DNA of 64,000 bases from Candidatus Pacearchaeota archaeon (GCA_041659445.1 JBAZYG010000001.1:381624-445623), one strand, 5' to 3'. Positions 15,907-57,244 are shown, counted from the first letter of the stretch. Numbers and translations: made by a program. Notes: generated by a model not told the origin, from the sequence alone.

Positions 15907-17412
15907 ATGAAAGATAAAAGAGGCCTTTCAGACGTTATAACAACTATTTTGTTAATTTTATTAGTTGTTATAGCTTTGGGAATTGTTTCTGTTATTCTTT
16001 TTTCCTTTGCAAAAAATAATTCAGAAAAAGCAGAATTAAAAGTTTCTTTGCTAAGTGAAAATTTTAAAATAAAAAAAGTATTAATTGATTCACAGGACCC
16101 TTCAAAAATTAATATTACTTTTTGTTGTGCTACAGGTTCATATCAAATTAAAAAACAAACAGAAGAAAATAATACAGAATTAGATATTGGACTAGTCATA
16201 GATCGTTCTGGAAGTATGAGACAAAGTGGATGGACAATTAATTTAGACTCAAGTCTTATTTCTTCGTATAATTTTTATAATTTAAATGTCCCAAGAAATT
16301 CTTATAGTTCTTCACAAACTTTTAATGTAAATTCTAGCAACACACGAATTGCAATTTTGTTGATGTGGGATAAAAAACAAGGATATAATGGTTCTGAAGG
16401 TTCAGAATTTTCACTTAATTTAAGAAGACCTTCAGGAGAATGGATTTTTGGTTCAGGTCAACCAAACACTGGGGGAAAAGTTGATCCCCCAGATTCTCTG
16501 GGAAACAGCAACGAATATTTTAATGGAATTTCTTCAAAACCCCAAATAATTTATATTGAAAACCCACAAGTAGGAAATTGGGAAGTTAAAGTATGGGGTT
16601 GGAATTTAAGACCGTCGACAAATCCTCCAAATTCCCAAAATGTAAATATTTCAGTTTTCAAGGGAAATGCTCAACAAATTTCTAAAAACCCAACAATTAT
16701 TTCAATCGACGCTGCTAAAAATTCTTCAAAAAGTTTTGTTAATTCTAAAAAAGATGATGAACAAATAAATTATGTTGTTTTTGGAAATTATGGAGAATTA
16801 AAACAAACTTTAACATCAAATCTTACAAAATTAATAAATGCTATTGACAACACTGGAATGGAAGGAGGCACAGCAATACAAACAGGAATTGAAACTGCTG
16901 AAGAAGATTTACTAAATAATGGTAGAGAAAATTCTGAAAAAATAATGGTAATCTTAACAGATGGACAAAATGACGCAGGCTCTGAAATTGTTATTCAAAC
17001 AGCACAAGAAGTCAAAGACAATGGAATTATTATTTTTACAATTGGTTTAACAGGATTTGTAGACGAGAACATGCTTAAACAAGTTGCAACTAAACCAGAA
17101 TATTACAATTATGCACCTGATGCTTCGAATTTAAATTTTATATTTGAAGAAGTAAGAAGAGATATCACAAATTTATTTGAAAAAAATGAAAAATTATCAG
17201 ATTATTTTCTTTTAATTTTTTATAACAATACAAACAGCTATGAATACAAACTTGACGACCCTTCTTTAAAACCACTTCAAACAAAAGAATATTTTTTTGA
17301 TTTAACTGGAAAATTGACAAATGTCACAAGAATAGAAATTTATCCTGTTATTTTAGCAAAAAATGGAAAAGAAGTAATTGGACAACTTCTTCAAACATTT
17401 GAGATTGCATAA
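15907..17412 (+). CDS. pilin-like protein with an archaeal class III signal peptide and a von Willebrand factor A (vWA) domain
   Basis: MKDKRGLSDVITTILLILLVVIALGIVSVILF (KRG plus hydrophobic segment); MIDAS-like DIGLVIDRSGSM (DxSxS), later TDG and GIIIFTIGL segments typical of a vWA fold. Confidence 0.6.
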   Translation: MKDKRGLSDVITTILLILLVVIALGIVSVILFSFAKNNSEKAELKVSLLSENFKIKKVLIDSQDPSKINITFCCATGSYQIKKQTEENNTELDIGLVIDRSGSMRQSGWTINLDSSLISSYNFYNLNVPRNSYSSSQTFNVNSSNTRIAILLMWDKKQGYNGSEGSEFSLNLRRPSGEWIFGSGQPNTGGKVDPPDSLGNSNEYFNGISSKPQIIYIENPQVGNWEVKVWGWNLRPSTNPPNSQNVNISVFKGNAQQISKNPTIISIDAAKNSSKSFVNSKKDDEQINYVVFGNYGELKQTLTSNLTKLINAIDNTGMEGGTAIQTGIETAEEDLLNNGRENSEKIMVILTDGQNDAGSEIVIQTAQEVKDNGIIIFTIGLTGFVDENMLKQVATKPEYYNYAPDASNLNFIFEEVRRDITNLFEKNEKLSDYFLLIFYNNTNSYEYKLDDPSLKPLQTKEYFFDLTGKLTNVTRIEIYPVILAKNGKEVIGQLLQTFEIA

Positions 17413-37014: not shown

Positions 37015-37291
37015 TGAAATCTTGAAAGATGGAATTAGTGCTCATTATATTGGAAGGGATTCTTTAGAAGATATTTCAAAAATAAGAGAATACTCAAAAT
37101 TTCCAGATAAATTATGGAAAATCGGAGATTACAAAAAAAGATTAGTTAGTTATTGGAAAGGTTTGCAAGATTTAGCTAAAAAATACCCAGATTCTGAAGT
37201 TATTAAAGAACAAACTGAAATAATTCTTAACTCGGCAAAAGAATATCTACCCGAAAATATATATAAAGAAATTTATGAATCAGAAAAATAA
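37001..37291 (+). CDS. small protein, copy 3 of the triplicated family; start trimmed to MNNIDE
   Basis: Same overlap architecture with copy 2; C-terminus diverged (YESEK). Confidence 0.5.
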   Translation: MNNIDEILKDGISAHYIGRDSLEDISKIREYSKFPDKLWKIGDYKKRLVSYWKGLQDLAKKYPDSEVIKEQTEIILNSAKEYLPENIYKEIYESEK

Positions 37292-39546: not shown

Positions 39547-41310
39547 ATGGAAGCAAAAAAATACCTTTTTCCAGTAATGATTTTATTAAGTTTATTTTTG
39601 ATTTGCTTTGTTAGTTCTGCCACAGAATTAACAATGTTTCATGTAAATTCTGTAGAAGATAATTCTAGTTTTATAGATGACTCTTATGCAATGGATATGC
39701 AAAATGATTTCTTATATATTGGGGGCAATGTTCAAGGCTTTCAAATTGTTGATGTTTCTGATTCTGCAAATCCAGTTGTAACAGGATACTTGAATACTTT
39801 AAACGGAATAATTGATTTAAAAGTCCAAGGAAATTATGTTTATGCTGTTTCTCTTACTAGTCCTAGTGACTTGAATATAATTGACATTTCTGATTCTGCA
39901 AATCCTGTAATTACAAACACAGTTACTTTAAACGGACAAGCTTCTGGAATAGATGTTGATTCTTTAGAAAGTTATGCTTATGTAGTTTATTCTGATAATT
40001 CAAATTTGGAAATAGTAAATCTTAGTGATAATTCAATAATAACTCCTTCATATGATTTAACAACAACTGCAAATGATATTTTAGTTGATGGAAATTATGC
40101 TTATGTTGTTTCAAGTGCTTCTGAATTAAAAATTTTAGATATTACTGATTTATCAAGCATTACTCAAGTTTCAATTTTAACAGATGACGGCACAACAGCA
40201 TTGAATGGGGCTTGGTCAATTTTCAAAGAAGGAAATTACTTATATATTTTATCTTCAGAGGGTTTTGAAATAATTAACGTCTCTGACCCTTTAACTCCAA
40301 CTTTAATGAAAGCAGTTTACAAAACAGATGCAATTTTAAACAACCACGATGTTAACGGAATTTTTGTAAAAAATAATATGGTCTATCTTTCATTAACCTC
40401 TCCAACACAAGGAATTGTAGAAGAAATTTCTCTTTTAGGAATCCTTACTGTTGTTCCCCCATCACAAATTTTTTTAATAATTGATTCAAGCACATCAAAT
40501 AACATTTTATTAGATACTCCTCGTGAAATAATTGTAAATGGAAATTACGCTTTTGTAACATCCTCAGATTTAATATTAACAAAAACTGGATTGGAAGTTA
40601 TAGGTATTGATGATTATACTCCTGTAATTGAAATTATTGCTCCAACTAATGCTACAACAATTTACCATAATGTTACAGCAGGTGCATTGAGTTTTGAATT
40701 TAAAGCAAAAATAACAGATGATTTTTCTGGAATAAAAAATGTAATATTTTCATTAAAAACACCAAATGGAGTGATTACAAATTATCCTTTAACTTCTCTT
40801 GGAAATGATGAATATTCTGCAATTGTTTCATTGACTGCTTATGGAACTTATGAAGCAAGTTTTGAAGCAAATGATTTTGCAACAAGAGGAAAAACAGAAT
40901 ATACTACATTTACTATATCTGAACCTGTTGTATCTTCAGGTGGTGGTGGCGGTGGTGGAGGTTCTTGTTCATATAATATAAATTATGATTGGAAATGTTC
41001 TAGTTGGGGTGAATGTGTTGATGGAACTCAAACAAGAACTTGTAATAATTTAAATAATTGTGGAAGCACTTATGGAAGACCAGACACAGAACAAACATGT
41101 ATTATTGAAATAATTCCTGAAACTGTGAACAACGCAACTGAAACAAATACTGCCGAGGGTGGAAGAGGATTAACAGGTGCAGTTATTGGTGGAACTTCAA
41201 GAGTATTTAGTTCTCCTTGGTTATACATACCGTTATTAGTTTTTGCAATTCTAATCGCTGGGTGGTTGTTGTTAGGATTATTCAGAAAGAAAGACAAAAA
41301 GAAAAAATAA
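39547..41310 (+). CDS. secreted cell-surface protein with LVIVD-like beta-propeller repeats, a Gly8 linker and a C-terminal TM anchor
   Basis: Signal peptide; recurring GNY[AVL]Y[VI][VL]S and I[IV]D[IV]SD..NP repeat units; GGGGGGGGS linker; C-terminal PWLYIPLLVFAILIAGWLLLGLF plus RKKDKKKK. Confidence 0.5.
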   Translation: MEAKKYLFPVMILLSLFLICFVSSATELTMFHVNSVEDNSSFIDDSYAMDMQNDFLYIGGNVQGFQIVDVSDSANPVVTGYLNTLNGIIDLKVQGNYVYAVSLTSPSDLNIIDISDSANPVITNTVTLNGQASGIDVDSLESYAYVVYSDNSNLEIVNLSDNSIITPSYDLTTTANDILVDGNYAYVVSSASELKILDITDLSSITQVSILTDDGTTALNGAWSIFKEGNYLYILSSEGFEIINVSDPLTPTLMKAVYKTDAILNNHDVNGIFVKNNMVYLSLTSPTQGIVEEISLLGILTVVPPSQIFLIIDSSTSNNILLDTPREIIVNGNYAFVTSSDLILTKTGLEVIGIDDYTPVIEIIAPTNATTIYHNVTAGALSFEFKAKITDDFSGIKNVIFSLKTPNGVITNYPLTSLGNDEYSAIVSLTAYGTYEASFEANDFATRGKTEYTTFTISEPVVSSGGGGGGGGSCSYNINYDWKCSSWGECVDGTQTRTCNNLNNCGSTYGRPDTEQTCIIEIIPETVNNATETNTAEGGRGLTGAVIGGTSRVFSSPWLYIPLLVFAILIAGWLLLGLFRKKDKKKK

Positions 41311-43373: not shown

Positions 43374-43838
43374 TTAACTTATTTTAATTTTTTCCAAAAA
43401 AATATTATAAAAAGAAACCAATGCATTTGATTCTTCTGTGAAAGGAAAAATTACACAAGTTCCTGCATCACACCGTCTATTTTCCCAAGTTCCTTCATAA
43501 AATTTAGTATCTTCCACTCCAAACTTCCAAATTAGATTGTAATTTAAGATAACTTCAGAGCCACCATTTTTTATTGCTTGCTTATTATATTTTTTTCTAA
43601 AATTAAAGCTTTTTTTATCATTTAATGCTCCAAAAAATTCTGCTTCTCCAAATTTATCGATTAATGTTCCTTTTAATTTTTTTCCATTTTGCTCTATAAT
43701 TTTCCCAAAGAAAATGCTACTATCTCTTCCAAGTTCATAATTCCAAAATCCATAAAAGTCGGGTTTTTCATTATTCATATTTTGAAAAACAAAATACAAT
43801 TTAAAAATATAATTATACTTCAAAATATACTTCTTCAC
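43374..43838 (-). CDS. hypothetical protein (154 aa)
   Basis: Complete ORF; no motif recognised. Confidence 0.35.
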   Translation of the reverse strand: MKKYILKYNYIFKLYFVFQNMNNEKPDFYGFWNYELGRDSSIFFGKIIEQNGKKLKGTLIDKFGEAEFFGALNDKKSFNFRKKYNKQAIKNGGSEVILNYNLIWKFGVEDTKFYEGTWENRRCDAGTCVIFPFTEESNALVSFYNIFLEKIKIS

Positions 43839-43871
43839 AATATTAATAAACTTATTTTTTGTATTTATTAT

Positions 43872-44408
43872 ATGAAAAAAAGAGGAAAGGGCGGTCAGTT
43901 TTATCTTGTTGCTGCAATGATTGTTATTGCAGTTATTATTGGAATTTCTTCAATTTCAAATTACTCAAACAAATCAAAAGCAGACAAAGAAATGAAAAAT
44001 TTTGAACAAGAATTAAACACTGAAGTTGAAAAAAATTTAGAATACATAAGTTTGAATTCTTTATCAGACAGTTCAACAAAAAATCTTTGGATAAATCTTA
44101 CAGATAACTATATTACAAAATTAGGAAAAAACAAAGAATCAATTTTTATTTTTGGAACAAAATCACAAATAACTGTCAAAGGATACAAACTGAATAATTC
44201 AAATGATTTGCAAATTAACGTCGGAAGTGGTGTTGAAAGTTTAGCAAGTTCAGAAGGAGAATTTGAAAGGGATTTTAATCCGAGTGTTGAAAACGTGACA
44301 ATTATAAAAGAAAATATTGAATATGTTTTTGATTTAAAGCAAGGACAAAATTTTTATTATCTGATTTCCAAAGAATATAATTCAGAGAGAATAATTATAA
44401 GAAACTAA
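43872..44408 (+). CDS. pilin-like protein with an archaeal class III signal peptide (start trimmed to MKKRGKGGQ)
   Basis: The track ORF starts upstream, but MKKRGKGGQFYLVAAMIVIAVIIGISS is a textbook prepilin-type N-terminus (basic residues, G, then a hydrophobic helix). Confidence 0.55.
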   Translation: MKKRGKGGQFYLVAAMIVIAVIIGISSISNYSNKSKADKEMKNFEQELNTEVEKNLEYISLNSLSDSSTKNLWINLTDNYITKLGKNKESIFIFGTKSQITVKGYKLNNSNDLQINVGSGVESLASSEGEFERDFNPSVENVTIIKENIEYVFDLKQGQNFYYLISKEYNSERIIIRN

Positions 44409-44409
44409 C

Positions 44410-44928
44410 ATGAAAAATAAAAAAGGTGTGAGCGTGATGATTGGTTATGTTTTGCTAGTTGCATTAGTAGTAGTCATGGCTGGAATAGTTTATGTTTATT
44501 TGAGAACTTATATTCCAAAAGACTTGCCTGCATGCCCTGAAGAAACTTCATTATTCATAAAAGAAAAATCTTGCTCAAACGGAATTTTAAATATAACTAT
44601 AAAAAATAATGGCAAATTCAGCGTCGGAGGTTATTATATTTATGCTTCAAATGTTTCAAGTGCAGAAATTGCAACAATAGATTTGTCAAAGCAATTAAAT
44701 TCTGGAATTGATAATCAATATACTTATTTCAATTCTGTAATTTTTAATATAAGCACTAACAATACTCTTGATCCTGGAAATGAAATTATAAATAGTTTTG
44801 ATTTAAATCAATCAATAAATTTCATTGAAATAATTCCTGCGAGGTTTGAATCACAAGGAAAAAATGTCAAATTAGTTAGTTGTGGAAATTCAAGAATAAA
44901 AGAAATTGTAACTTGCTTGATTGTATAA
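44410..44928 (+). CDS. pilin-like protein (class III signal peptide)
   Basis: MKNKKGVSVMIGYVLLVALVVVMAGIVYVYL. Confidence 0.55.
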   Translation: MKNKKGVSVMIGYVLLVALVVVMAGIVYVYLRTYIPKDLPACPEETSLFIKEKSCSNGILNITIKNNGKFSVGGYYIYASNVSSAEIATIDLSKQLNSGIDNQYTYFNSVIFNISTNNTLDPGNEIINSFDLNQSINFIEIIPARFESQGKNVKLVSCGNSRIKEIVTCLIV

Positions 44929-44959
44929 TATTTAAAAATATAGAAGATTTAGAATAAAA

Positions 44960-45418
44960 ATGAACAAAAGAGGTTTGTCATCAGTTATTGCAACAATGCT
45001 TTTAATTACAATAACAATTGTCATTGCATTAATTGTATTTTTATGGTTTAGAGGAATTCAAGAAGAAGCAATTACAAAATTCGACGGAGTTAATGTAAAA
45101 GTAATCTGCGATGAAGTTCAATTTGATGCAGATTATTCTAATGGAGCAATGTATATTGTTAATACAGGAGATGTTCCAATTTATAAAATGGAAATAAAAG
45201 AAGTTGGTGAAGGATATTATGAAACACAAACTCTTGAAAATAATTGGCCAGAATTAGGATTGACACAAGGTGGAGCTTTTCAAGGAAATTATGCTCCTTT
45301 AGGTGAATCTTATTCTATAGAAAGAATTGTTTTAATTCCTGTTTTAATTGGCCACACTGAACAAGGAGATACAATCTATACATGCGATGAAAAAAATGGT
45401 TATGAAATAATTTTATAA
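44960..45418 (+). CDS. pilin-like protein (class III signal peptide)
   Basis: MNKRGLSSVIATMLLITITIVIALIVFLWF. Confidence 0.6.
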   Translation: MNKRGLSSVIATMLLITITIVIALIVFLWFRGIQEEAITKFDGVNVKVICDEVQFDADYSNGAMYIVNTGDVPIYKMEIKEVGEGYYETQTLENNWPELGLTQGGAFQGNYAPLGESYSIERIVLIPVLIGHTEQGDTIYTCDEKNGYEIIL

Positions 45419-45419
45419 A

Positions 45420-45914
45420 ATGAAAAATAAAAAGGCATTATCTCAAGTTGTTTCAATAATGATCATTCTTCTTTTAGTTTTTGCTGTTGGTGGAATTGTT
45501 TTTGTTTTTGTAAAAAATTTTGCAAATAAAAACCTCAATAAAACAAGTTCTTGTTACAACATTTACGAAAAAATTACATTAAATAATGATTTTACTTGTT
45601 ATAATTCAACTGGGCAATATGTTCAATTTTCAATTTCTAGAAAAGAAATAGAATTAGACTCTTTAATAATTTCAATCACATTCGAGGAAAATTCAAAAAC
45701 TTATTCTTTGACAAATCTTTCACAAAATGTTAGTGGATTAAGTTCTTCTCTAAATGGTGAATTTGCTGTCAATCTTCCTGGAGAAAATAGTGGAAAACCA
45801 TATTATGCAACAAACATTACTGAGCAACCTTTAACAATTGAAATTGCTCCAATAATTAACAATCATAATTGCAACAAGATTGACGAAATTTTAGATATTC
45901 CTATTTGTTTTTGA
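45420..45914 (+). CDS. pilin-like protein (class III signal peptide)
   Basis: MKNKKALSQVVSIMIILLLVFAVGGIVFVFV. Confidence 0.55.
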   Translation: MKNKKALSQVVSIMIILLLVFAVGGIVFVFVKNFANKNLNKTSSCYNIYEKITLNNDFTCYNSTGQYVQFSISRKEIELDSLIISITFEENSKTYSLTNLSQNVSGLSSSLNGEFAVNLPGENSGKPYYATNITEQPLTIEIAPIINNHNCNKIDEILDIPICF

Positions 45915-45961
45915 ATATTAAACATTAACTATTTAAATAAAAAATAATTCTTTATTAGGAG

Positions 45962-46486
45962 ATGGTGATAACAAAAAAAGCACAAGTTTGGATTGAAACA
46001 GTAACTTATATTTTAATTGCATTTGCATTAATTGGTTTAATTTTAGCATTTGCAAGACCAAAAATTCAGGAATACCAAGACAAATCAATTCTAGAGCAGT
46101 CATCAAAAATGATGAAAGTCTTAGACGAAACAATAAGAGAAGTTGGTAATGAAGCTGTTGGAAATAAAAGAAATATTGATTTAAGAGTTCGAAAAGGAAC
46201 TTTGGAAATTAATCCGCAAAATAATACTCTGACTTTTATTATGGATAGTAAATATATTTATAGCGAATTGGGAAAAACAATATCTGAAGAAAATTTATTT
46301 GTTACAACAACTGCTAAAGGAAAGTTTAATGAAGTTAAAATGTATTTAAATTACACTGGAGAATATGACTTACTTCAAAATAATTTAACAGAAACAAAAA
46401 TACTTACAACATCGTCAACAGATTATGATTTATATATTTCAAACAAAGGAGGTTCACCAATACAAATAGATATTGAAATAGATTAA
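45962..46486 (+). CDS. pilus/archaellum accessory protein with an N-terminal TM anchor (FlaF/FlaG-like position)
   Basis: VWIETVTYILIAFALIGLILAFA then a soluble beta-rich domain; sits immediately upstream of the ATPase. Confidence 0.4.
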   Translation: MVITKKAQVWIETVTYILIAFALIGLILAFARPKIQEYQDKSILEQSSKMMKVLDETIREVGNEAVGNKRNIDLRVRKGTLEINPQNNTLTFIMDSKYIYSELGKTISEENLFVTTTAKGKFNEVKMYLNYTGEYDLLQNNLTETKILTTSSTDYDLYISNKGGSPIQIDIEID

Positions 46487-46487
46487 A

Positions 46488-48047
46488 ATGCCAACAAAAA
46501 GAATAGGAATTCAAGATTATCCTCAAGTTGCTATTGATTTTTCACCAAGAATTCCAAAATTAAAAAAACAACGAGACAAATCTAAAATAAATGTAAGATA
46601 TTGTTTAATTTCTCCTTTCACATATGTCCATATTTATTGGAATCCAGAAGATTATGAAGTTGCATATGATATAGAAGAACCAATTTTAGATAAAAATGAA
46701 ACAAGATACCTTGAGCAAATTATTTCTGCAATGAAAGATATGATTGATTTTAATGAAATTATTCGAAAAAGCAAAGATTCATTGTTTGAATATATTGATA
46801 AAAGATTTAAAATATTGGCAATTGAATTAGGTTTAGATATTTCTTATGAAAGTTATAAAAAATTATTTTATTATTTATGCAGAGATTTTGTTGGATTTAA
46901 TGAAGTAGAACCTTTATTGAGAGATTATTTTGTCGAGGATATAGAATGTAATGGAGCAAACACTCCTATTTATATTGTTCACAGAGTTTTTAGAAATTTA
47001 AGAACAAACATTAAATTTGAAAGTAATTCAAGATTGGAAAGTTTTGTAGAAAAACTTGCACAAAGATGTGGAAAGTATATTTCATATGCAAAACCAATTT
47101 TAGATGCAAGTTTGCCAGATGGTTCAAGAGTTAATGCAACTTATACAAAAGATATTACAAGTAAAGGACCAACTTTTACAATTAGAAAATTCACTAAAAA
47201 ACCATGGACACCTCCTCAATTAGTTGCATTTAATACTTTAAGTCCTGAAATGCTTGCTTATTTATGGTTACTTGTCGAATATAAAATGAACGTTCTTATT
47301 ATTGGGGGAACGGCCTCAGGTAAAACCACTTTGTTAAATGCTATTGCGTTTTTTATTCCACCAGAAGCAAGAGTTGTAAGTATTGAAGATACTCGTGAAT
47401 TAAATTTACCTAGGGAAAACTGGTTGCCAAGTGTTTCGCGTTCTGCTATTGGAATTGGAAACATGGGTGAAATTGATTTGTATGATTTACTTAAAAGTTC
47501 ATTCAGACAAAATCCAGATTATGTAATTGTTGGTGAAGTTAGAGGTAAAGAAGCAAGTGTTTTATTTCAGGGAATGGCTTCAGGACACTCATCTATTAGT
47601 ACAATCCACGCTGATTCTGTTGAAACAGTTATAAAAAGATTAGAAACTCCTCCTATTGAACTTTCTCCAACTCTGTTAAATGTTCTAGACAGTGTTTGTA
47701 TTATGACTCATGCAATTGTAAATAAACAAGAAACAAGAAAATTAAGGGAAATTGTTGAAATTGTAAATGTAACTCCAGACGGAATAGCGTTAACAAATAC
47801 CCCGTTTAAATGGAATTCAAGAGAAGATGTATTTTATTTTAAAAAAGAAAGTAAATTATTTGAAAAAATTTCCAAAAGGTATGGTATAACAACAGAAGAA
47901 TTAGTTAAAGAATTTCAATTAAGAACAATTTTATTATATAAAATGTATGAAAATAAAATATTTGATTTTGACGATGTTCAAACAATCATAAATGAATATT
48001 ATAAAAGACCTGACGAAGTTTTAAAAAAATTTCAAGTAATTAAATAA
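46488..48047 (+). CDS. type IV pilus/archaellum-family secretion ATPase (FlaI/PilB/TadA/VirB11 superfamily)
   Basis: Walker A VLIIGGTASGKTTLLNAIAFFIP, SIEDTRELNL (Asp box), Walker B DYVIVGEVRGKEA, His box SSISTIHADS. Confidence 0.8.
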   Translation: MPTKRIGIQDYPQVAIDFSPRIPKLKKQRDKSKINVRYCLISPFTYVHIYWNPEDYEVAYDIEEPILDKNETRYLEQIISAMKDMIDFNEIIRKSKDSLFEYIDKRFKILAIELGLDISYESYKKLFYYLCRDFVGFNEVEPLLRDYFVEDIECNGANTPIYIVHRVFRNLRTNIKFESNSRLESFVEKLAQRCGKYISYAKPILDASLPDGSRVNATYTKDITSKGPTFTIRKFTKKPWTPPQLVAFNTLSPEMLAYLWLLVEYKMNVLIIGGTASGKTTLLNAIAFFIPPEARVVSIEDTRELNLPRENWLPSVSRSAIGIGNMGEIDLYDLLKSSFRQNPDYVIVGEVRGKEASVLFQGMASGHSSISTIHADSVETVIKRLETPPIELSPTLLNVLDSVCIMTHAIVNKQETRKLREIVEIVNVTPDGIALTNTPFKWNSREDVFYFKKESKLFEKISKRYGITTEELVKEFQLRTILLYKMYENKIFDFDDVQTIINEYYKRPDEVLKKFQVIK

Positions 48048-48103
48048 AATGAAAAAACTAAAAATAAATTTGGGTAAACTTCATTTTTCAAAAAACCAAT
48101 AAA

Positions 48104-48268
48104 ATGAGAAAAGAGGAAATACTTTACTTAGGACAATTATTTGAAATTCTTGAGGATAAAATAAAAAGATTAAAAGAATCATACGAAAATAAAGAAGTTC
48201 TAAAATTTAATTCTTTAAAAAAGGAAATAATTCAAATCCATGAAAAAATATCTGAAACAATAAAATGA
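48104..48268 (+). CDS. small coiled-coil protein (54 aa), below ORF-track cutoff
   Basis: Hand translation MRKEEILYLGQLFEILEDKIKRLKESYENKEVLKFNSLKKEIIQIHEKISETIK*; its stop overlaps the ATG of the next gene (atgA). Confidence 0.25.
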   Translation: MRKEEILYLGQLFEILEDKIKRLKESYENKEVLKFNSLKKEIIQIHEKISETIK

Positions 48269-49623
48269 TTAAAAAAAAAGAATATCCCTTTGAAAAAATA
48301 CAGAATTTGATTGAAAAACAAAATAAATTATTAGAAGAACTAAAAAAATTTTCTTTTGAAATGTATCGAAACAAATATGGTGAATCTGAAAAAACAATGA
48401 TTTCTCAAAGGATGGACAAAATAAAAGATACAATAAAACTTCAGAACAATCAATTAATAGAAGAAATAAAAGGAATAAACCTTGCAAAAGAACTTGGCCT
48501 ACCTGAAGAAGTAATAAAAACCACTCCTAAGAACTTTTTAAACTCAAAGCCTAAAGAAAGTGCATACGAGGATAGAGAAGATGAATCTTTGAAATTTAAA
48601 GGAGGAAAAATTTACAATACTAAAGAATTGTCTGTGAAAGGCCTTGAAAAAGAAACAATAGTAAGATTGAGAGAAGCAAAGAAAAAAGTTGAAAAAATTA
48701 AACACGAAAAAATAAAAACAAAATCAAAATATTCAGAACTCTCAAGTAAATTATTCTCAAAGGTTTCAAAAAAACTTTTAGGAAATGAATCTTTTAAAAA
48801 ATTACAGGAAAATTTGATTAAAGCAAATTTAGATTATTCTCCTACAGGATATATTTCTTTTATTTTATTTACTACTTTGATTTCAGTTTTTGTATCTATT
48901 TTTGTTATGCTTTTTTTCTTGTTTTTTAATATCGAGGCAATTTCACCATTTATAACAAGAACTAGCGAAGAAGTTTTAATTCGTCTTGGAAAAGTAATTT
49001 GGATTGTTATAGTTGCTCCAGTCGGAACTTTTTTCACATTATATTTTTATCCTAGTCTTGAAAAAAAATCAGCAGAATATAAGATAGACACAGAATTACC
49101 TTTTGCAACAATTCATATGGCTGCTATCGCAGGTTCGATGATAAACCCTGTAAAAATATTTGAAATTTTAATAACAACCAAAGAATATAAAGCTCTTGAA
49201 AAAGAATTTACAAAATTATTAAATGAAATAAATATTTATGGTTCAGATTTGGTTAATGCTTTAAAAAATACTGCAAAAAATACTTCTAGTAAAAGACTTT
49301 CAGAATTATTAAACGGATTATCTACAAATATAAGTTCTGGTGGAGACTTGCCGAGTTTTTTTGAAAAGAGATCTGAAACTTTATTATTTGAATACAGAAT
49401 TCAGAGGGAAAAAGCAACAAGAGGTGCAGAAAGTTTTATGAATATTTATATAAGCATGGCAATCGCATCTCCAATGATTTTAATGCTCTTATTAATGATG
49501 TTGAAGTTAAGTGGTCTTGGATTAAGTACTCCTGCATCAACACTAACTTTAATTATGGTACTTGGAGTTGTTGTGCTTAATGCTGTTTTAATAACTTTTT
49601 TGCACTTAAAAAAACAAAAATAA
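48265..49623 (+). CDS. pilus assembly platform membrane protein, FlaJ/TadC/PilC-like (first half)
   Basis: Cytoplasmic coiled-coil N-terminal domain, then a TM block with a T2SS-F-like organisation; adjacent to the ATPase as in archaeal pilus/archaellum operons. Confidence 0.5.
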   Translation: MIKKKEYPFEKIQNLIEKQNKLLEELKKFSFEMYRNKYGESEKTMISQRMDKIKDTIKLQNNQLIEEIKGINLAKELGLPEEVIKTTPKNFLNSKPKESAYEDREDESLKFKGGKIYNTKELSVKGLEKETIVRLREAKKKVEKIKHEKIKTKSKYSELSSKLFSKVSKKLLGNESFKKLQENLIKANLDYSPTGYISFILFTTLISVFVSIFVMLFFLFFNIEAISPFITRTSEEVLIRLGKVIWIVIVAPVGTFFTLYFYPSLEKKSAEYKIDTELPFATIHMAAIAGSMINPVKIFEILITTKEYKALEKEFTKLLNEINIYGSDLVNALKNTAKNTSSKRLSELLNGLSTNISSGGDLPSFFEKRSETLLFEYRIQREKATRGAESFMNIYISMAIASPMILMLLLMMLKLSGLGLSTPASTLTLIMVLGVVVLNAVLITFLHLKKQK

Positions 49624-49624
49624 A

Positions 49625-50482
49625 ATGGAACTAAAAAAAATACATTTAATCTCTGCATTAGTAGCGTTTGCATTAATTGCAATTGGATATTTTTTAGCAA
49701 GTAAAAAACTTTTTCCTTTAATTGCTGGAATTGGTGCATTAATTGGATTTGCTCCGTTTTTAATTACATTAATGAAAGAAATTAAAACTGCTTCTGAAAA
49801 AGAAGAAATGTTTTTGGAATTTGCTAGAAATCTCGTCGAGAGTGTTAAAACAGGAACTCCAATAAGTAAAAGTATTGTAAACATGAGCAATAAAAATTAT
49901 GGTGCCTTAACAGAGCATATTCAAAAACTAGCAAATCAAATTTCGTTAGGTATTCCCTTAAATAAAGCCTTGGATGTTTTTTCAAAAGATGTAAAAAATA
50001 AATCTATTTCACGTTCATTAACTTTAATTGGACAAGCAGAAAGAGCTGGAGGAGAAATTGGAGAAATACTTGAATCTGTTGCAGGAGCTGTTAGCATTTC
50101 AGATAAATTAAAAAAAGAAAGAAAAGCTTCAATCTCTACATTAGTTTCTCAAGGATATATTATTTTCTTGGTTTTTATTGTAATAATTTTAGTTATGCAA
50201 TATCAAATAATTCCAATGGTTTCTGGAATAGCAAATGTCCAAGATTTGGGGTTAGCGGGTTTTGGAGTTTCAAAAGTTAGTAATTATCAACAAGTTGAGC
50301 AAAGACAAATTTCAAATTCATTTTTGTATTTAATTTTAACACAAGGCTTTTGCGCAGGACTTGTTATTGGTAAAATTTCAGAAGGAAGCATTAAAGCAGG
50401 AATTAAACATTCTTTTTCCTTAATGTTTTTGTCTTTCTTAATATCTGCAATAGCAAATGCTTTGTTATCTAAAGGAGGATAA
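49625..50482 (+). CDS. pilus assembly platform membrane protein, FlaJ/TadC-like (second half)
   Basis: N-terminal TM pair, cytoplasmic helical domain (LANQISLGIPLNKALD... resembles the T2SS-F domain), C-terminal TM block; 1 nt after the previous stop. Confidence 0.5.
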   Translation: MELKKIHLISALVAFALIAIGYFLASKKLFPLIAGIGALIGFAPFLITLMKEIKTASEKEEMFLEFARNLVESVKTGTPISKSIVNMSNKNYGALTEHIQKLANQISLGIPLNKALDVFSKDVKNKSISRSLTLIGQAERAGGEIGEILESVAGAVSISDKLKKERKASISTLVSQGYIIFLVFIVIILVMQYQIIPMVSGIANVQDLGLAGFGVSKVSNYQQVEQRQISNSFLYLILTQGFCAGLVIGKISEGSIKAGIKHSFSLMFLSFLISAIANALLSKGG

Positions 50483-50506
50483 TTTATTTTTAAATAAAAA
50501 AATAAA

Positions 50507-51205
50507 ATGAAAAATAAAAGGGCCAGTCATGTAGATGTTACGATTTCATTTATTATTTTTGTTTTGTTTTTGACATTTTTATTTATATTTACAAAATTCC
50601 CAGAAAAATCAGAATCTGATCAAGATTTATCTCTAGGATTAGTAAAAAATAGTATGGTGAATTATTTATCTTCAGATGTTACAATTTATTATATTAAAAA
50701 TTCTTCTATAAAAACTTCTGAAAATTGCATAATGATTAATGAATTAAGTCTAGATCCAAATTTAAAAAATATTGTTAAAGATATAAATGAAAACAATATA
50801 TACTCAAAAAGAGAATCTGGAAATTTATATATTAGTTGGATTTCTGGACAAAGTTTATTTAAAAGCTATTATTCTGAAGAAAACTTTAGCAATTTCAATT
50901 TAACTGGTTCTTTGAATTGTCAAACCGGAGAAATAAATTCTATTCAAGAACAAAACAAAATCATGGAAACAAAAATATTAAAAATGATTCAAGAATATTC
51001 TTCAAATTATTCTTATCTAAAATCAAACATTGGAATACCTCAAAACGAAGATTTTAACGTGCAATTCGAATATGCTAATAAAACAATAATCGGGCAAAAC
51101 ATGACTGAAATTAAGGCTAGTGTTTTTGTAAAGAATTTTCAAATAGATTATTTAGACGTTAATGGTAATGAAAAAATAGGAAATTTAATAATATATTTAT
51201 GGTAA
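50507..51205 (+). CDS. pilin-like/pilus-associated protein with an N-terminal class III-like signal
   Basis: MKNKRASHVDVTISFIIFVLFLTFLFIF. Confidence 0.45.
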   Translation: MKNKRASHVDVTISFIIFVLFLTFLFIFTKFPEKSESDQDLSLGLVKNSMVNYLSSDVTIYYIKNSSIKTSENCIMINELSLDPNLKNIVKDINENNIYSKRESGNLYISWISGQSLFKSYYSEENFSNFNLTGSLNCQTGEINSIQEQNKIMETKILKMIQEYSSNYSYLKSNIGIPQNEDFNVQFEYANKTIIGQNMTEIKASVFVKNFQIDYLDVNGNEKIGNLIIYLW

Positions 51206-51657
51206 AAGAAAAAAAAATTATAAATAAGAAGAAAAAAGCTTGGATAAAAATATTTGAAGCTTTTATTTCGTTAGTGTTTATAGTTAGTATTATGTTTACT
51301 GTATCTTATACTGAAAAAGTAAATAAATATGATTTACCAAACAGAGTTCAAGAAAAACAAATAGAAATATTACATTTAATTCAAGTAAATGATTCATTAA
51401 GAAAAGAAATCTTGAATGTTACACAAATCCCTATAGAATCTAACGAAACAGGATTTCCAGAAGATTTAATTAATTTAGCAAACGATTCCATTCCTGAAAG
51501 TTTAGAATGTATTTTAAAAATTTGCCATCCTGAAAGCAATTGCGAATTAAATTATTATCCTGAAGAAAGAGAAATATATACACAAAATGTTATAATTAGT
51601 TCATCAATAAATCAATTCAATCCAAGAAAATTATCTATTTTTTGCTGGGAAAAATGA
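51199..51657 (+). CDS. pilus-associated protein with an N-terminal TM anchor
   Basis: KKKAWIKIFEAFISLVFIVSIMFTV then a soluble domain with CxxxC...C. Confidence 0.4.
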   Translation: MVKEKKIINKKKKAWIKIFEAFISLVFIVSIMFTVSYTEKVNKYDLPNRVQEKQIEILHLIQVNDSLRKEILNVTQIPIESNETGFPEDLINLANDSIPESLECILKICHPESNCELNYYPEEREIYTQNVIISSSINQFNPRKLSIFCWEK

Positions 51658-51705: not shown

Positions 51706-52119
51706 ATGAAAACATTTGAATTTCTTGAGCATACTGCAGACATAAAAATAAAAGCTTATGGTAAAGATATAAATGAGGTTTTTAAAAATTCAGCATATGC
51801 TTTTTTAAATTTCTTAACAAATAAAAAAATTTCTGAAAAAAAATTAAAAAAAATAAAAGTTCAAGGAAAAGATTTTGAAAGTCTGCTTTACAATTTTATA
51901 GAAGAATTGATTTTTCTCCTTGATTCAGAGAACTTATTAATATCCAAAATTAAAAAATTAAAAATTGATAAAAATAAATTTAAATTGGAATCAGAAATTT
52001 ATTTTGACAAGTGTGAAAAATATTTAATAAGAAAATCAATAAAAGCAATAACTTACAATGAAATGTATATTAAAAAACAAAAAGACAAATGGATTGCACA
52101 ATTTGTTTTAGATATTTAA
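51706..52119 (+). CDS. archease (RtcB activator)
   Basis: MKTFEFLEHTADIKIKAYGKDINEVFKNSAYAF is the conserved archease N-terminus (F-x-x-L-x-H-T-A-D). Confidence 0.8.
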   Translation: MKTFEFLEHTADIKIKAYGKDINEVFKNSAYAFLNFLTNKKISEKKLKKIKVQGKDFESLLYNFIEELIFLLDSENLLISKIKKLKIDKNKFKLESEIYFDKCEKYLIRKSIKAITYNEMYIKKQKDKWIAQFVLDI

Positions 52120-52984: not shown

Positions 52985-54361
52985 ATGCAAATAAAAAAAA
53001 TTTCAAAAAACAAATATGAAATTCCTAAATCTGAAGATATGAATGTTCCAGGATTAATTTATGCCTCGGAAAAATTGATTAAAGATATTGAAAAAGATAA
53101 AACACTGAATCAAGTAAAAAATGTTGCGCAATTGCCTGGAATTGTAAAATATTCTCTTGCTCTACCAGACGCACATCAAGGTTATGGTTTTTGCATTGGT
53201 GGCGTAGCTGCTTTTGATTTAGAAAAAGGAATAATTTCTCCAGGCGGTGTTGGATATGATATTAATTGTGGGGTAAGATTGCTCAAAACAAATTTAACAA
53301 AAAAAGATATTTCAGGAAAAGAAAAAATTCTTGCTGAATTTTTGTTCAAAAAAATTCCCTCTGGGGTTGGAAGAGGAAGTAAATTTCAATTAACTTACAA
53401 ACAATTAGATGAAGTTTTGGAAAAAGGTGTAGAATATTTAATTGAAAAAAATTATGCTTCAAAAGATGATTTAAAAAATATCGAAGAAAATGGAAGAATA
53501 AAAAATGCAGATTCATCTAAAGTTTCTGAAAGAGCAAAAAAAAGAGGAATTGGTCAACTTGGGACACTTGGTGCTGGAAATCACTTTTTGGAAATCCAAA
53601 TTGTAGATAATATCTTTGATGATAAAATTGCAAAGAAATTTGGATTGTTCAAGAATCAAATTGTTATAATGTTGCATTGTGGTTCTCGAGGATTAGGACA
53701 TCAAGTTGCCTCAGATTATATTAAATTAATGGAAGAAAAATATGATTTTGAAAATTTACCAGATAGAGAATTGATAAATGCTCCAATAAAAAGTAAACTT
53801 GGACAAGATTATCTTCAAGCAATGAATTGCGCTGCGAATTTTGCTTTTGCAAATAGACAAATAATTTCTCATTGGACAAAAGAAGTTTTTTCAGAAATTT
53901 TTCCAAATTCAAAAGTTGAAACTCTTTATGATGTTTGCCATAATATTGCAAAAATTGAAGAGTATAATTTAAACGGAAAAAAACAAAAGTTATGTGTTCA
54001 TAGAAAAGGAGCTACTCGAAGTTTTGAAAATCAGCCTGTTTTAATTCCAGGAACAATGGGAACTTCAAGTTATGTTCTGATTGGAAATAAAAAATCCCAA
54101 GATTTAACTTTTTCAAGTGTTGCACATGGTGCAGGAAGATTAAAAAGTAGAATTAGTGCAATGAAAATGGTAAAAGGAAAATTATTAAAAGAAAAATTAC
54201 AAAATAAAAAAATAATTATTCAAACAGATAACATTTCATCTCTTGCAGAAGAAGCTCCTGAAGCTTACAAAAATGTCGACGATGTTGTAGAAATAATTTC
54301 TGAAGAAGGCCTAGCAAAAAAAGTTGCACAATTAAGACCTTTAATCGTAATTAAAGGCTAG
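52985..54361 (+). CDS. rtcB: RNA-splicing ligase RtcB (3'-phosphate/5'-hydroxyl tRNA ligase)
   Basis: LPDAHQGYGFCIGGVAAFD, GGVGYDINCGVRLL, GAGNHFLEIQ, HCGSRGLGHQVA, PGTMGT, HGAGR: the conserved metal-binding and GTP-site blocks of RtcB. Confidence 0.85.
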   Translation: MQIKKISKNKYEIPKSEDMNVPGLIYASEKLIKDIEKDKTLNQVKNVAQLPGIVKYSLALPDAHQGYGFCIGGVAAFDLEKGIISPGGVGYDINCGVRLLKTNLTKKDISGKEKILAEFLFKKIPSGVGRGSKFQLTYKQLDEVLEKGVEYLIEKNYASKDDLKNIEENGRIKNADSSKVSERAKKRGIGQLGTLGAGNHFLEIQIVDNIFDDKIAKKFGLFKNQIVIMLHCGSRGLGHQVASDYIKLMEEKYDFENLPDRELINAPIKSKLGQDYLQAMNCAANFAFANRQIISHWTKEVFSEIFPNSKVETLYDVCHNIAKIEEYNLNGKKQKLCVHRKGATRSFENQPVLIPGTMGTSSYVLIGNKKSQDLTFSSVAHGAGRLKSRISAMKMVKGKLLKEKLQNKKIIIQTDNISSLAEEAPEAYKNVDDVVEIISEEGLAKKVAQLRPLIVIKG

Positions 54362-54712: not shown

Positions 54713-57244
54713 TTAATTGTTAATTGAATTCACTTTAGATATTTTTTGCTCAAATAATTTTTTCTCAGAAGATGAAACTTCTAATATATACATTCCATTT
54801 GCTAAATTAGACAAATCAAATTCAACATCTTTATTTCCAGGATAAATTTCTTCTTTAAAATAATCTACTAATCTCCCAGACATTTCATAAACTTCTGCAT
54901 AAATTTTTTCTGGTTTTGAAACTTCATAATTAAATTTTATTTTTCCTGAAGCAGATGGATTTGGATAAACTTTAAATTTGTCCTCGAGAGTTTTTGGTTT
55001 TTCAGGAACTCCAATTGAAATATCTTCAGTAATATATTGAGAAGTATCTGGTGCAGGAGTTCCACAAATATCATATGAAGACCAATGTCTTTCCCATAAC
55101 CTATAAACATTTGGAATTTCTTCAATTAATTCATCTGTATAATTAACTTCTGGAACAACATTTGAGATAGTATCGTCTGCAACTGCCCAACCTAAATCCT
55201 CTGGAGCCATACTTTCTCCTGTTTTTATTGTTGTGTCTGCTGGAACAAATGCCCAATAAGGAGGTTCTGTTTCAACGACGCTGACATGTTGATTTTGCTG
55301 AATTGAATTATAACAAATTGTATCATTTGCATTATGAGCCCAATCAAATTCATAATTATAATGTTGACAATCAGTTGAATCTGGATTTTGGGTTGAATTT
55401 ATTTTAGATGGATCTTCTTCGACAATTACTTCAATTCCAGTTGGATTAAATGCAGTAGGTAATCCACCTGTTTGTGAAGTAGTTATATTCGGAGAATAAT
55501 TTATTTGTGCATTTGCTGGAAAAGATGCCCATTGATGAATATCTAAATAAACGTCTCTAGAATAAGTTGTATCTGTAAAATTACCAGTTGGGTCTTGAGC
55601 ATGATCTGTAAATTGTTGAGTGAAATTATAATAATTGCATGAGTCAGGACTTAAACCTTGCGTTGAAGTTTCAGAAATTCTTGTTACAATTTCGTGTCCT
55701 GAATTATCGTCGGCATCTGCTAAAGGAACAGGTATTGCTTGGGTAAATGGAACTGGACCTGAAACATAAATATTAGTTATTTCTGGATTTTCTGTATCTC
55801 TTACTGAAATTAATTGTGCAGGCTTATTTGGGAAATGCACATTATCTATTGTTCCATAAGTTGTATCAATTAAAACATTTTCAAGAGATTTTCCAAACCA
55901 GTCTCGATAAATGTCAAAATTGTAATAAGTTGAATCCCAAACTGTTCCTGATTGATTTGAACTATCTGAATAAATTGTATATGACCAAGGAGCATTTCCT
56001 GTAACTTCTCCTGTATTTTCTGGAGCTGTTAAATTTGAATTTTGAGAATATTCAATGTCGATGTTTGAAGGCATTTGCCCTCCGACATGAACGTGATTGC
56101 ATTCTTCTGGTTTATTAACAATTAAATCAGGATGTTGCCAAATTAATGTTGCATTTCCATTTTGCAAATCAAATTTAGCAATTGTATTTAAAGTATACAC
56201 GTATTGGCCCAAATTTGAATTATAATAATAAGCATATTTTTTTATATGGGCATAACTATCAGGATGCATGCTTGGACTTCCTAGTGTAACTATTTGATCA
56301 TTTTGAGGTTCAACAAAAACCCAATCATTAAAATTTGTCGAACTATTTCCTTTTAAAAATGCATTAATTGAATGTAAAATATTTGGAGAAGTATACATTG
56401 TGCTAACAATATAAAATGGTTCATTAAATCTTGCATTTTGAGTTGTATCATAAATTGAAAAATCTATACCAGAATTTTCAATATTTTCAATTCCAGATTT
56501 ATTTATTTGAGTTTGCATAGAATATTGATTACAATCCCAATTTGGTCCTGGAGCATGAAGATTTGTTAAATCAATTGCTTGAGTTTTTTGGTCCCAAAAT
56601 TCTTTTTCAGAAGATGTTAAAAAATTCCAATGACTAGGCAAATAAGGAATTTCATCTGTTAAGTAATTGTAAATTAATTGAGAATCTAATGTATTTGTAA
56701 CTTGATCTCCATTTATATCTGTTCTATCGTTGGAAGTTCCAGAGATTATTAAATTATAATCTTGCCAATTTAAAACATTATCGTCATTTGCATCACCAGA
56801 ACCATAATAACTTAAATCAAAATTTCCAGCATTTAATAAATTTGGTTGAATAAATGGATTCAAATATTGATCCCCATAAAAAGAATTTACATTGTCTGTT
56901 GAATTTGAATTTTCATATTCTTTGTTGATGATTTCAGAAGCTCTTTCAGAATAATAAACTCCTTCACTAGGAGAATAAGCTAAATTTTTATCAATTGCTT
57001 CAGATAGAGTTATATAATCAATAATTTTTTTTTCAAGATTTAAATTTACCTCTTTTAAATTATCAAAATTAATTTCAGGAACATTAACTGAATTAATTAC
57101 TGGAACTTTAAATTCTTCTGAAACTAAGGATTTTTCTTTATAAGGAATATTTTCATTTTGAGAATATGTAAAACTAGGAAGTACAGAAATTCCTGTTGCA
57201 ACTAATCCAATACCAATATTTTTTAATTTATTTGCTTTTTTCAT
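54713..57244 (-). CDS. large secreted protein with dockerin-like calcium-binding repeats and a C-terminal T9SS-type (Por_Secre_tail-like) sorting domain
   Basis: Signal peptide MKKANKLKNIGIGLVATGISVLPSFTYSQ; GDANDDNVLNWQDYNLII and DINGDQVTNTLDSQLIYNYL (dockerin-type D-x-N-x-D pairs); C-terminal about 85 aa KVYPNPSASGKIKFNYEVSKPEKIYAEVYEMSGRLVDYFKEEIYPGNKDVEFDLSNLANGMYILEVSSSEKKLFEQKISKV matches the T9SS CTD pattern. Confidence 0.55.
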   Translation of the reverse strand: MKKANKLKNIGIGLVATGISVLPSFTYSQNENIPYKEKSLVSEEFKVPVINSVNVPEINFDNLKEVNLNLEKKIIDYITLSEAIDKNLAYSPSEGVYYSERASEIINKEYENSNSTDNVNSFYGDQYLNPFIQPNLLNAGNFDLSYYGSGDANDDNVLNWQDYNLIISGTSNDRTDINGDQVTNTLDSQLIYNYLTDEIPYLPSHWNFLTSSEKEFWDQKTQAIDLTNLHAPGPNWDCNQYSMQTQINKSGIENIENSGIDFSIYDTTQNARFNEPFYIVSTMYTSPNILHSINAFLKGNSSTNFNDWVFVEPQNDQIVTLGSPSMHPDSYAHIKKYAYYYNSNLGQYVYTLNTIAKFDLQNGNATLIWQHPDLIVNKPEECNHVHVGGQMPSNIDIEYSQNSNLTAPENTGEVTGNAPWSYTIYSDSSNQSGTVWDSTYYNFDIYRDWFGKSLENVLIDTTYGTIDNVHFPNKPAQLISVRDTENPEITNIYVSGPVPFTQAIPVPLADADDNSGHEIVTRISETSTQGLSPDSCNYYNFTQQFTDHAQDPTGNFTDTTYSRDVYLDIHQWASFPANAQINYSPNITTSQTGGLPTAFNPTGIEVIVEEDPSKINSTQNPDSTDCQHYNYEFDWAHNANDTICYNSIQQNQHVSVVETEPPYWAFVPADTTIKTGESMAPEDLGWAVADDTISNVVPEVNYTDELIEEIPNVYRLWERHWSSYDICGTPAPDTSQYITEDISIGVPEKPKTLEDKFKVYPNPSASGKIKFNYEVSKPEKIYAEVYEMSGRLVDYFKEEIYPGNKDVEFDLSNLANGMYILEVSSSEKKLFEQKISKVNSINN

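Follow-up and report, generated by a model that had tools for sequence, protein, structure and literature searches.

A probable type IV pilus operon with a two-gene membrane platform in a Pacearchaeota-type archaeon

Pacearchaeota and Woesearchaeota, both belonging to the DPANN archaea, are uncultured; their genomes are tiny, and they are believed to need contact with other cells. In a 64-kb stretch of DNA from a Pacearchaeota archaeon (hereafter, the window, with positions counted from its first base), a run of genes at 43872-51657 on the + strand raises the question of what surface machine such a cell might build. A further question is whether its membrane platform, which a preliminary description of the sequence took to be either encoded by two separate genes or split by a frameshift, is genuinely made in two parts. 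With respect to the first question, the hallmarks of a type IV filament are all present, namely, an assembly ATPase with a T2SSE domain, a membrane platform with two T2SSF domains, and subunits with class III signal peptides, and we consider it highly probable that the locus is an operon by which a Pacearchaeota-type DPANN archaeon assembles an archaeal type IV pilus (T4P) not used for motility. As to the second, the platform is truly encoded by two genes and is not a frameshift artefact. Below we set out the evidence for both answers, the alternatives to them, and the relationship of the locus to systems that have already been described.

Organization of the locus

The operon comprises 11 tightly packed, co-directional genes: five that code for prepilin-like proteins, one for a FlaI/GspE2-type ATPase, one for a 54-amino-acid (aa) protein, two for platform proteins, and two for further prepilin-like proteins. 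They are listed here with the archease gene that follows them; an arrow marks the predicted processing site.

pil1, 43872..44408, +, prepilin-like protein of 178 aa; site [KR]G↓QFYL(I/V)A, Q at +1
pil2, 44410..44928, +, prepilin-like protein of 172 aa; site KK[GA]↓(V/I/L)S.M(I/V)GYVLL
pil3, 44960..45418, +, candidate major pilin of 152 aa; site KRG↓LSPVIATVLLI
pil4, 45420..45914, +, prepilin-like protein of 164 aa; site KK[GA]↓LS.VV
pil5, 45962..46486, +, prepilin-like protein of 174 aa; site K[RK][GA]↓QVWIETV.YTLIAF
assembly ATPase, 46488..48047, +, 519 aa, archaeal FlaI/GspE2 type
s54, 48104..48268, +, 54-aa cytoplasmic protein with two amphipathic helices
platN, 48265..49623, +, platform N-terminal half, 452 aa, one T2SSF domain
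platC, 49625..50482, +, platform C-terminal half, 285 aa, one T2SSF domain
dn1, 50507..51205, +, prepilin-like protein of 232 aa; site KK[GA]↓SHVG(V/I)(V/I)LSF
dn2, 51199..51657, +, prepilin-like protein of 152 aa; site KKG↓WIK.(V/I)EAF
archease, 51706..52119, +, PF01951 (5.5e-38); downstream neighbour, not a pilus component

Adjacent genes are joined either by a stop codon, one base, and a start codon (44408/44410, 45418/45420, 46486/46488, and 49623/49625) or by overlaps (48265-48268, with the sequence ATGA, and 51199-51205). Translation recovered every open reading frame (ORF) of the preliminary description in its place. The first pilin ORF is, as had been suspected there, over-extended from its listed start (TTG at 43689; 43689..44408), and the internal ATG at 43872 gives MKKRGKGGQFYLV. 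A 17-codon mini-ORF (48049-48102, +) lies inside the 56-nucleotide gap between the ATPase gene and s54; this gap is only 36-41 nucleotides long in most related loci, and the mini-ORF is not conserved. The flanks are made up of chromosomal housekeeping genes, with SMC, RNase HII, IleRS, ArgRS, D-aminoacyl-tRNA deacylase, a Toprim protein, and four tRNAs. These four tRNAs were also the only features recovered by an Rfam scan, none of them inside the locus. The GC content is ~27% across the whole window, with uniform composition, and a scan for bacterial-type promoters and terminators stayed at the background level, as expected for an archaeon.

Conservation across related genomes

A species-representative scan, with one genome per species and a 13-sequence alignment as the query, recovered a relative of the operon in 511 genomes. 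The best 80 loci carry the labels Pacearchaeota, Woesearchaeota, Nanoarchaeota, or plain archaeon, the exceptions being one Iainarchaeum and two entries labeled “bacterium.” For the systematic count of loci, + strand ORFs were scored with hidden Markov models (HMMs) built from four genomes, and 78 loci had both platform halves. The same gene order, including the split platform, is seen in three diverged genomes, and the complete 12-gene order in 23 loci, most of the others being truncated by contig ends. Between diverged members, identity is 75-82% for the ATPase (three other genomes) and 48-69% for the platform halves. The recurrence of this gene string in dozens of diverged genomes is far beyond chance, and such a level of conservation marks the operon as a core function, probably the main attachment or uptake organelle of these cells.

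Downstream, archease directly follows dn2 in 31 of the 39 loci with enough flanking sequence and lies on the same strand in 44 of 45; RtcB, found at 52985-54361 (+) in the window, is within ~3 kb in 33 of 39 related loci. This linkage between a pilus operon and a tRNA-splicing ligase pair is unexpectedly stable and has no obvious functional reason. As a separate observation, in loci L058, L059, L062, L070, and L073 pil2 is duplicated and, although the flank is long enough, neither dn1 nor dn2 could be detected behind platC, which suggests a subgroup with a variant pilin complement.

The assembly ATPase

The ATPase contains a T2SSE domain (PF00437; E = 4.4e-34, 118 bits against a cutoff of 24.9), and its motifs are legible in the translation as the Walker A sequence GGTASGKTT, the Asp box RVVSIEDTRELNL, the Walker B motif PDYVIVGEVRGKEA, and the His box GHSSISTIHADS, which bears out its earlier description as a secretion ATPase of the FlaI/PilB type. 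The top NCBIfam model is FlaI (NF058587; 1.3e-120, 403.6 bits, below the equivalog cutoff of 550), followed by BasE (1.3e-70, 238 against a cutoff of 1000), while the TIGR03819 model for the TadA/CpaF clade scores 151.7 against a cutoff of 373 and PilB3_C gives a weak match (E = 8.9e-4) below its cutoff. Among PDB sequences, the ATPase matches Archaeoglobus fulgidus GspE2 (2OAP; 4e-112, 378 bits) and FlaI (2e-86, 293 bits), both over the full length, ahead of CpaF (3e-50, 174 bits) and of VirB11 (4e-20), the last in the core region alone. A grouping with VirB11-type ATPases, which the preliminary description had named as the sign of a conjugative element, was therefore not observed. The protein is also 35% identical over its full length (2e-103) to the ATPase of a haloarchaeal plasmid T4P system, which is larger (833 aa) and has extra domains.

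A membrane platform encoded by two genes

The genes platN and platC lie 1 nucleotide apart in different frames, and each codes for a single T2SSF domain (PF00482), at residues 284-409 of PlatN (2.4e-13, 50.6 bits) and 66-191 of PlatC (3.7e-15, 56.4 bits; cutoff in both cases, 25.2). On the 555 positions of the NCBIfam ArlJ/FlaJ profile, PlatN corresponds to 38-241 and PlatC to 271-550, such that together they cover a whole FlaJ/PilC-type platform. This is the distribution of domains that the preliminary description had anticipated; the contrary arrangement, with both T2SSF domains in one ORF and the other ORF unrelated, did not occur. Its more general statement, that in archaea a single polypeptide carries both T2SSF domains of the platform, proved incomplete, as two-gene platforms have been documented for Epd, Tad, and several archaeal T4P clades (PMC4371748, PMC4858521, PMC6668835). 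Since these documented platforms likewise have one domain in each gene, the split in itself is not unusual.

A different explanation for two adjacent half-platforms would be a single FlaJ-like gene that has been broken by a sequencing or assembly frameshift, or has become a pseudogene, or whose halves are fused via programmed frameshifting. Indeed, deletion of a single A in the A7 run at 49606-49612 would fuse both ORFs in frame. However, each of the 78 loci, all from independent genomes, has the two halves in separate ORFs, and a fusion is seen in none. Their homologues, too, are uniform in length: PlatC has homologues in 3,723 clusters at 90% identity, the top 120 of which all measure 273-293 aa with one T2SSF each, and the top 120 homologues of PlatN mostly fall between 420 and 462 aa (a few are shorter, and one has 490 aa), none with more than one T2SSF. 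The commonest junctions between the two genes are a 1-nucleotide gap (27 loci), a 1-nucleotide overlap (13 loci), and direct abutment (7 loci), and the frame offset varies, being 1 in 36 loci, 2 in 27, and 0 in 15. The A-run upstream of the platN stop is not conserved, so that there is no conserved recoding site; what recurs is the junction TAAaATGGAA or TAATGGAA, i.e., a stop-start of the form TAAaATG or TAATG, and the TAAnATG type also joins other gene pairs of the operon. Because the frame offset varies, the A-run is unconserved, and the stop-start junction recurs, we interpret the arrangement as termination-reinitiation coupling of two proteins rather than programmed recoding. Of the two options left open earlier, that of separate genes stands, and a broken or recoded single gene is exceedingly improbable.

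An exhaustive search with PlatC among 1.84 billion representatives returned 2,198 relatives. Those of 512-876 aa were considered as possible fusions and rejected, since they have one T2SSF domain and unrelated polytopic N-terminal extensions in which PlatN finds no match. A fused platform was found only on a megaplasmid of the haloarchaeon Salinibaculum, where the 833-aa ATPase is followed by one T2SSF protein of 701 aa; a tblastn search of PlatC against plasmids gave no match. On this 701-aa platform, residues 25-314 are matched by the profile of PlatN (8e-24) and residues 433-694 by that of PlatC (9e-42); nothing in it corresponds to the first ~140 positions of the PlatN profile. Given this mapping, the two DPANN genes correspond to one conventional platform plus a clade-specific N-terminal extension. 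In the AlphaFold 2 model of PlatN (predicted local distance difference test, 82.5), a confidently predicted hairpin (residues 8-69) is followed by a disordered linker (~75-125), after which come cytoplasmic helices, then transmembrane helices, and finally the T2SSF bundle. The predicted cytoplasmic bundle superposes on the cytoplasmic domains of OutF, EpsF, and PilC (target TM-scores of 0.68-0.73).

The 54-aa protein and the extension of PlatN

The 54-aa ORF at 48104..48268, which had been noted to overlap the start of the platform gene by ATGA, is confirmed: other genomes have it annotated as a gene, 69 of the 78 loci contain a detectable copy, and in 50 of those 69 its stop overlaps the platN start by ATGA. 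The second of its two amphipathic helices opens with a conserved FN, and the protein belongs to no Pfam family. We also considered whether it might be a paralogue of the N-terminal hairpin of PlatN and rejected this, the hhalign probability of 3.6% being equal to that of the reversed-sequence control.

Three details set the clade apart: the hairpin-plus-linker extension of PlatN (~190 aa), the coupled s54, and the tight archease/RtcB linkage. The stop-start-coupled translation of the two platform genes and s54 suggests a fixed stoichiometry of the products, and s54 together with the PlatN hairpin probably constitutes a cytoplasmic accessory module. These two, s54 and the PlatN extension, are the only parts of the operon that have no described counterpart. 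One might go further and suppose that the colinear order of ATPase, N-terminal half, and C-terminal half in this DPANN clade reflects a split independent of that in Epd/Tad or a retained unfused state, which possibly co-evolved with the hairpin-linker and s54 module acting as a FlaH/FlaX/TadZ-like scaffold or regulator. We put this forward as a tentative possibility, and one that we doubt more than we favor. If true, the heterodimeric platform with its adaptor would amount to an archaeal pilus motor of distinct architecture, specialized for life as an episymbiont.

Prepilin-like proteins

Instead of the four pilin-like genes counted in the preliminary description, there are seven genes for proteins with class III signal peptides and conserved sites (pil1 to pil5, dn1, and dn2). 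The fifth of the upstream group, pil5 (45962..46486), had gone unlisted, and the two downstream proteins, which had been described as N-terminally anchored, likewise have conserved class III-type sites. In all seven, a conserved [KR][GAS] site is followed by a hydrophobic helix, and each family has its own signature after the site (40-65 orthologues each). The mature N terminus is QFYLIAA in pil1 (Q+1 in 35 of 40 orthologues), (V/I/L)S.MIGYVLL in pil2 (motif anchored in 46 of 54 sequences), LS.VV in pil4 (L+1 in 39 of 47), QVWvETVIYTLIAF in pil5 (Q+1, W+3, E+5, and T+6 in 51 of 53), SHVG..LSF in dn1 (S/T+1 in 62 of 65), and WIKIVEAF in dn2 (W+1 in 57 and E+6 in 58 of 59); dn2 also has four invariant cysteines (C104, C109, C115, and C149).

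The most conserved of the pilins is pil3, whose mature N terminus, LSPVIATVLLIAIVIV, is of the canonical archaeal form. It passes the TIGR02537 model (23.4 against a cutoff of 20), and its predicted structure, a helix plus a beta-sandwich, matches archaeal pilin and archaellin subunits. We postulate that pil3 is probably the major subunit and that the other six prepilins, each with its own invariant mature N terminus, are probably minor or priming pilins. For pil2, the Pilin_N domain is matched with an E value of 7.7e-4, below the gathering cutoff. When the profiles of pil5, dn1, and dn2 were compared with PDB sequences, nothing fell below an E value of 0.1 and neither FlaF nor FlaG was matched; dn1 has no relative in Pfam or NCBIfam.

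Proposed assembly and alternative functions

Taking these components together, we propose that the seven prepilins would be inserted in the membrane and that an A24-type prepilin peptidase, the gene for which would lie elsewhere in the genome, would cut off their short, positively charged leaders after [KR][GAS]. A hexameric ATPase of the FlaI/GspE2 type would dock on the cytoplasmic T2SSF bundles of a heterodimer of PlatN and PlatC, which together would act as one conventional FlaJ/PilC, and ATP hydrolysis would then power the transfer of pilins out of the membrane and into the filament. In this scheme we infer the heterodimer, the roles of the individual pilins, and the processing by a peptidase acting in trans. 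By analogy, the pilus might serve for attachment to surfaces or host cells and possibly for DNA uptake.

Several points weigh against such a pilus. No A24 prepilin peptidase (PibD, FlaK, or EppA) was found among the ORFs of the window, where the Pfam scans covered those of at least 110 aa and where the only polytopic ORFs besides the platform belong to TauE and DUF families; archaeal prepilin peptidases are often encoded away from pilus operons. The Pilin_N (PF07790) scores of pil2 to pil4 are below the Pfam gathering cutoff, and the choice of a major pilin is a guess from conservation and the canonical N terminus. The filament itself is predicted from genes and modeled folds, and its adhesive or host-attaching role is deduced from the absence of motility genes and from analogy.

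Related machines have to be weighed on the same evidence. An archaellum, i.e., a rotary motility filament, would agree with FlaI being the best NCBIfam match of the ATPase, with the Joint Genome Institute labels of several homologues (“flagellar protein FlaJ” or “flagellin-like”), and with the alignment of the pil3 model to archaellin. Nevertheless, the FlaI score (403.6) stays below its cutoff (550), the ArlJ models reach 55-75 where their cutoffs lie at 400-570, and the ATPase is nearer to the non-archaellar GspE2 of A. fulgidus than to FlaI. Pfam and NCBIfam models for FlaH/KaiC, MinD/FleN, FlaF/G, FlaC/D/E, FlaX, and the PF01917 archaellin found nothing in the operon or in window ORFs of at least 110 aa, and the lack of any PDB match to FlaF or FlaG for pil5, dn1, and dn2 points the same way. 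We accordingly regard an archaellum as very unlikely. The earlier proposal of an adhesive pilus rather than an archaellum thus holds as far as the exclusion of archaellum-specific genes goes, its adhesive part being a deduction from the missing motility genes. A conjugative or other mobile element with a VirB11-type ATPase is less probable still, to the point of being practically discounted: the NCBIfam models for VirB11 and TrbB do match the ATPase core at 1e-38, but with ~130 bits against cutoffs of 250-305, and the PDB match to VirB11 is limited to that core, whereas those to GspE2 and FlaI extend over the full length. Furthermore, no VirB4, VirD4, relaxase, or integrase is adjacent to the locus, VirB4 and VirD4 are also absent among window ORFs of at least 110 aa, the chromosomal synteny with archease and RtcB is conserved in 31-33 of 39 genomes, and the GC content is uniform.

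More weight, though still amounting to an unlikely outcome, attaches to the possibility that the locus makes something other than a primarily adhesive fibre, i.e., a short pseudopilus for secretion or surface display, akin to a type II secretion system or a bindosome, or a competence pilus for the uptake of DNA. The seven distinct pilin-like proteins, whose major subunit is a prediction, are reminiscent of a pseudopilin set, and BasE is the second-best NCBIfam match of the ATPase (1.3e-70). With respect to competence, a gene for a secreted nuclease with staphylococcal-nuclease and lamin-tail domains lies 4.4 kb upstream, and 8 of 32 related loci have it within 10 kb on the upstream side; a paper on a screen for genes required in natural transformation of Methanococcus maripaludis mentions Epd platform genes (PMC10133366), and the co-occurrence of pilin-like and competence genes has been described for ultra-small groundwater archaea and bacteria (PMC9938205). 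On the other side, BasE (238 against 1000) and BasF (28 against 1300) are far below their cutoffs, the locus has no substrate-binding proteins bearing class III signal peptides, the linkage to the nuclease is weak (25%), and no ComEC- or DprA-like gene was seen among the Pfam-scanned window ORFs of at least 110 aa. The predicted fold of pil3, moreover, resembles that of an ordinary filament-forming pilin. A non-motile T4P hence remains the reading that we prefer.

Other genes in the window

Among the more distant genes, one has features that might relate it to the pilus:

Pilin-N + VWA protein, 15907..17412, +, 501 aa; site KRG↓LSDVITTILLI

Its Pilin_N domain scores 27.2 bits (cutoff, 25.2) and its VWA domain 3.3e-18; the gene is flanked by tRNA genes (15362-15442, 15741-15816, and 17487-17567) and lies 28 kb from the operon. 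It is a candidate adhesin that may be borne on the pilus or share its processing peptidase.

Directly upstream of the operon, three sets of genes deserve mention. The nuclease referred to above (38726-39484, +), with its staphylococcal-nuclease and lamin-tail domains, is just upstream of the operon also in loci L001 and L003; a functional link between the two was considered and rejected, given its presence in only 8 of 32 loci. The product of the gene that follows (39547-41310, +), 587 aa long, combines a signal peptide with LVIVD repeats (beta-propeller, 1.7e-22) and a Cys-rich region and has a membrane anchor at its C terminus; homologues of it occur near the operon in seven related loci. 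Between these genes and the operon, the segment 41370-43838 contains a gene on the - strand for an endonuclease with NUMOD3 and DUF559 (Vsr-like) domains and two small ORFs. These genes have no counterpart in any of 80 related loci, and the segment looks like a local insertion.

Several further products were noted elsewhere in the window. A 555-aa protein with a signal peptide (20139-21806, -) has YadA-head repeats (9e-33), an adhesin motif of bacterial trimeric autotransporters that is here encoded in an archaeal genome. A 221-aa protein (24235-24900, +) has an SLT lytic transglycosylase domain (5.4e-15); the presence of a peptidoglycan-cleaving enzyme in an archaeon without peptidoglycan of its own hints at an interaction with bacteria. 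An 843-aa protein (54713-57244, -) ends in a Por_Secre_tail, a sorting domain of type IX secretion (2.4e-11), and a similar domain occurs near the operon in L004. An ORF of more than 1,370 codons (59888-64000, +), which begins with the signal peptide MRKKFLIGFVFGLLLIGLVSASF and runs past the end of the window, probably codes for a giant surface protein.

Two other loci were also noted. At 1382-2578 (+), a GmrSD N-terminal domain is combined with an HNH endonuclease in a type IV restriction-like defence gene. At 36670-37291 (+), two overlapping ORFs of 114 and 123 aa have in common an N-terminal motif, ..RFMKMNNIDEIL..; the pair may have arisen by a small tandem duplication or be a single gene with a frameshift.

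Comparison with known systems

Two-gene platforms have several precedents. In M. maripaludis, where EpdL is the ATPase of the Epd pilus, EpdJ and EpdK are both essential for pili and have been likened to TadB/TadC (PMC4371748). Makarova et al. (2016) recorded a pair of TadC components for Clade 1, and in their account tadC-like genes also come in twos in many loci of Clade 2 and in the Thermoproteales clade 4B; the euryarchaeal T4P of Clade 2, whose signature minor pilin is arCOG02911, include a few Nanoarchaea (PMC4858521). Denise et al. found one PF00482 domain in each platform gene of Epd and Tad and argued for gene fission of a two-domain ancestor (PMC6668835).

The likeness to Epd and Tad lies in the platform, which is made from two adjacent genes with one T2SSF domain each. 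With Epd there is a further resemblance in that the Q+1 of pil1 and pil5 recalls the KGQ sites of pilins processed by EppA, whereas pil2 to pil4 have (V/L/I)S sites that are more like the PibD type (PMC4371748, Table 1). In other respects the systems differ. By bit score, the ATPase stands much nearer to GspE2 (378) and FlaI (293) than to CpaF (174), and the operon has no second P-loop protein of the TadZ- or FlaH-like kind, unlike the bacterial Tad comparator, which has one. In the Epd order given by Denise et al., the platform genes precede the ATPase (PMC6668835), whereas here the ATPase is followed by the N-terminal and then the C-terminal half, colinear with FlaJ. On these three grounds, namely, an ATPase nearer to GspE2/FlaI, the lack of a TadZ-like gene, and an order colinear with FlaI-FlaJ, we do not assign the locus to the Epd/Tad clade. 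As for a correspondence of the halves with TadB and TadC, TadB has been assigned to the C-terminal half of the platform by Denise et al. (PMC6668835); of the Tad platform genes of Pseudarthrobacter pACHL01, the first is the one that both DPANN half profiles match best.

The haloarchaeal PilB/PilC-type systems and the Clade 2 T4P offer a parallel in the affinity of the ATPase, nearest to A. fulgidus GspE2, in the order of ATPase then platform, and in the several pilin families per operon. The haloarchaeal comparator differs in its single fused platform of 701 aa and its 833-aa ATPase with extra domains, and it has no counterpart of the ~190-aa PlatN extension or the coupled s54. The archaellum is homologous to the locus in its ATPase and platform, and its subunits likewise have class III signal peptides and a fold of helix plus beta-sandwich; in contrast, FlaJ is one two-domain protein, and the scores obtained here stay below the FlaI and ArlJ equivalog cutoffs.

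Closest in taxonomic range are the conserved T4P-like loci with coiled-coil proteins reported by Hamm et al. (2024) across Cluster 2 DPANN, including Pacearchaeota and Woesearchaeota (PMC11291902), the coiled-coil elements in our locus being s54 and the N terminus of PlatN. The neighbours differ: locus 1 of that study lies beside Mpg, GroEL, and GatE, in place of the archease and RtcB found here (PMC11291902). The present locus is thus not a new kind of machine, both two-gene platforms and DPANN pilus loci having already been described. What it adds to these is a clean parts list, with seven prepilins that have family-specific mature N termini, a two-gene platform, and a small coupled protein, and a well-sampled case for judging how often the platform of a type IV filament is split or fused.

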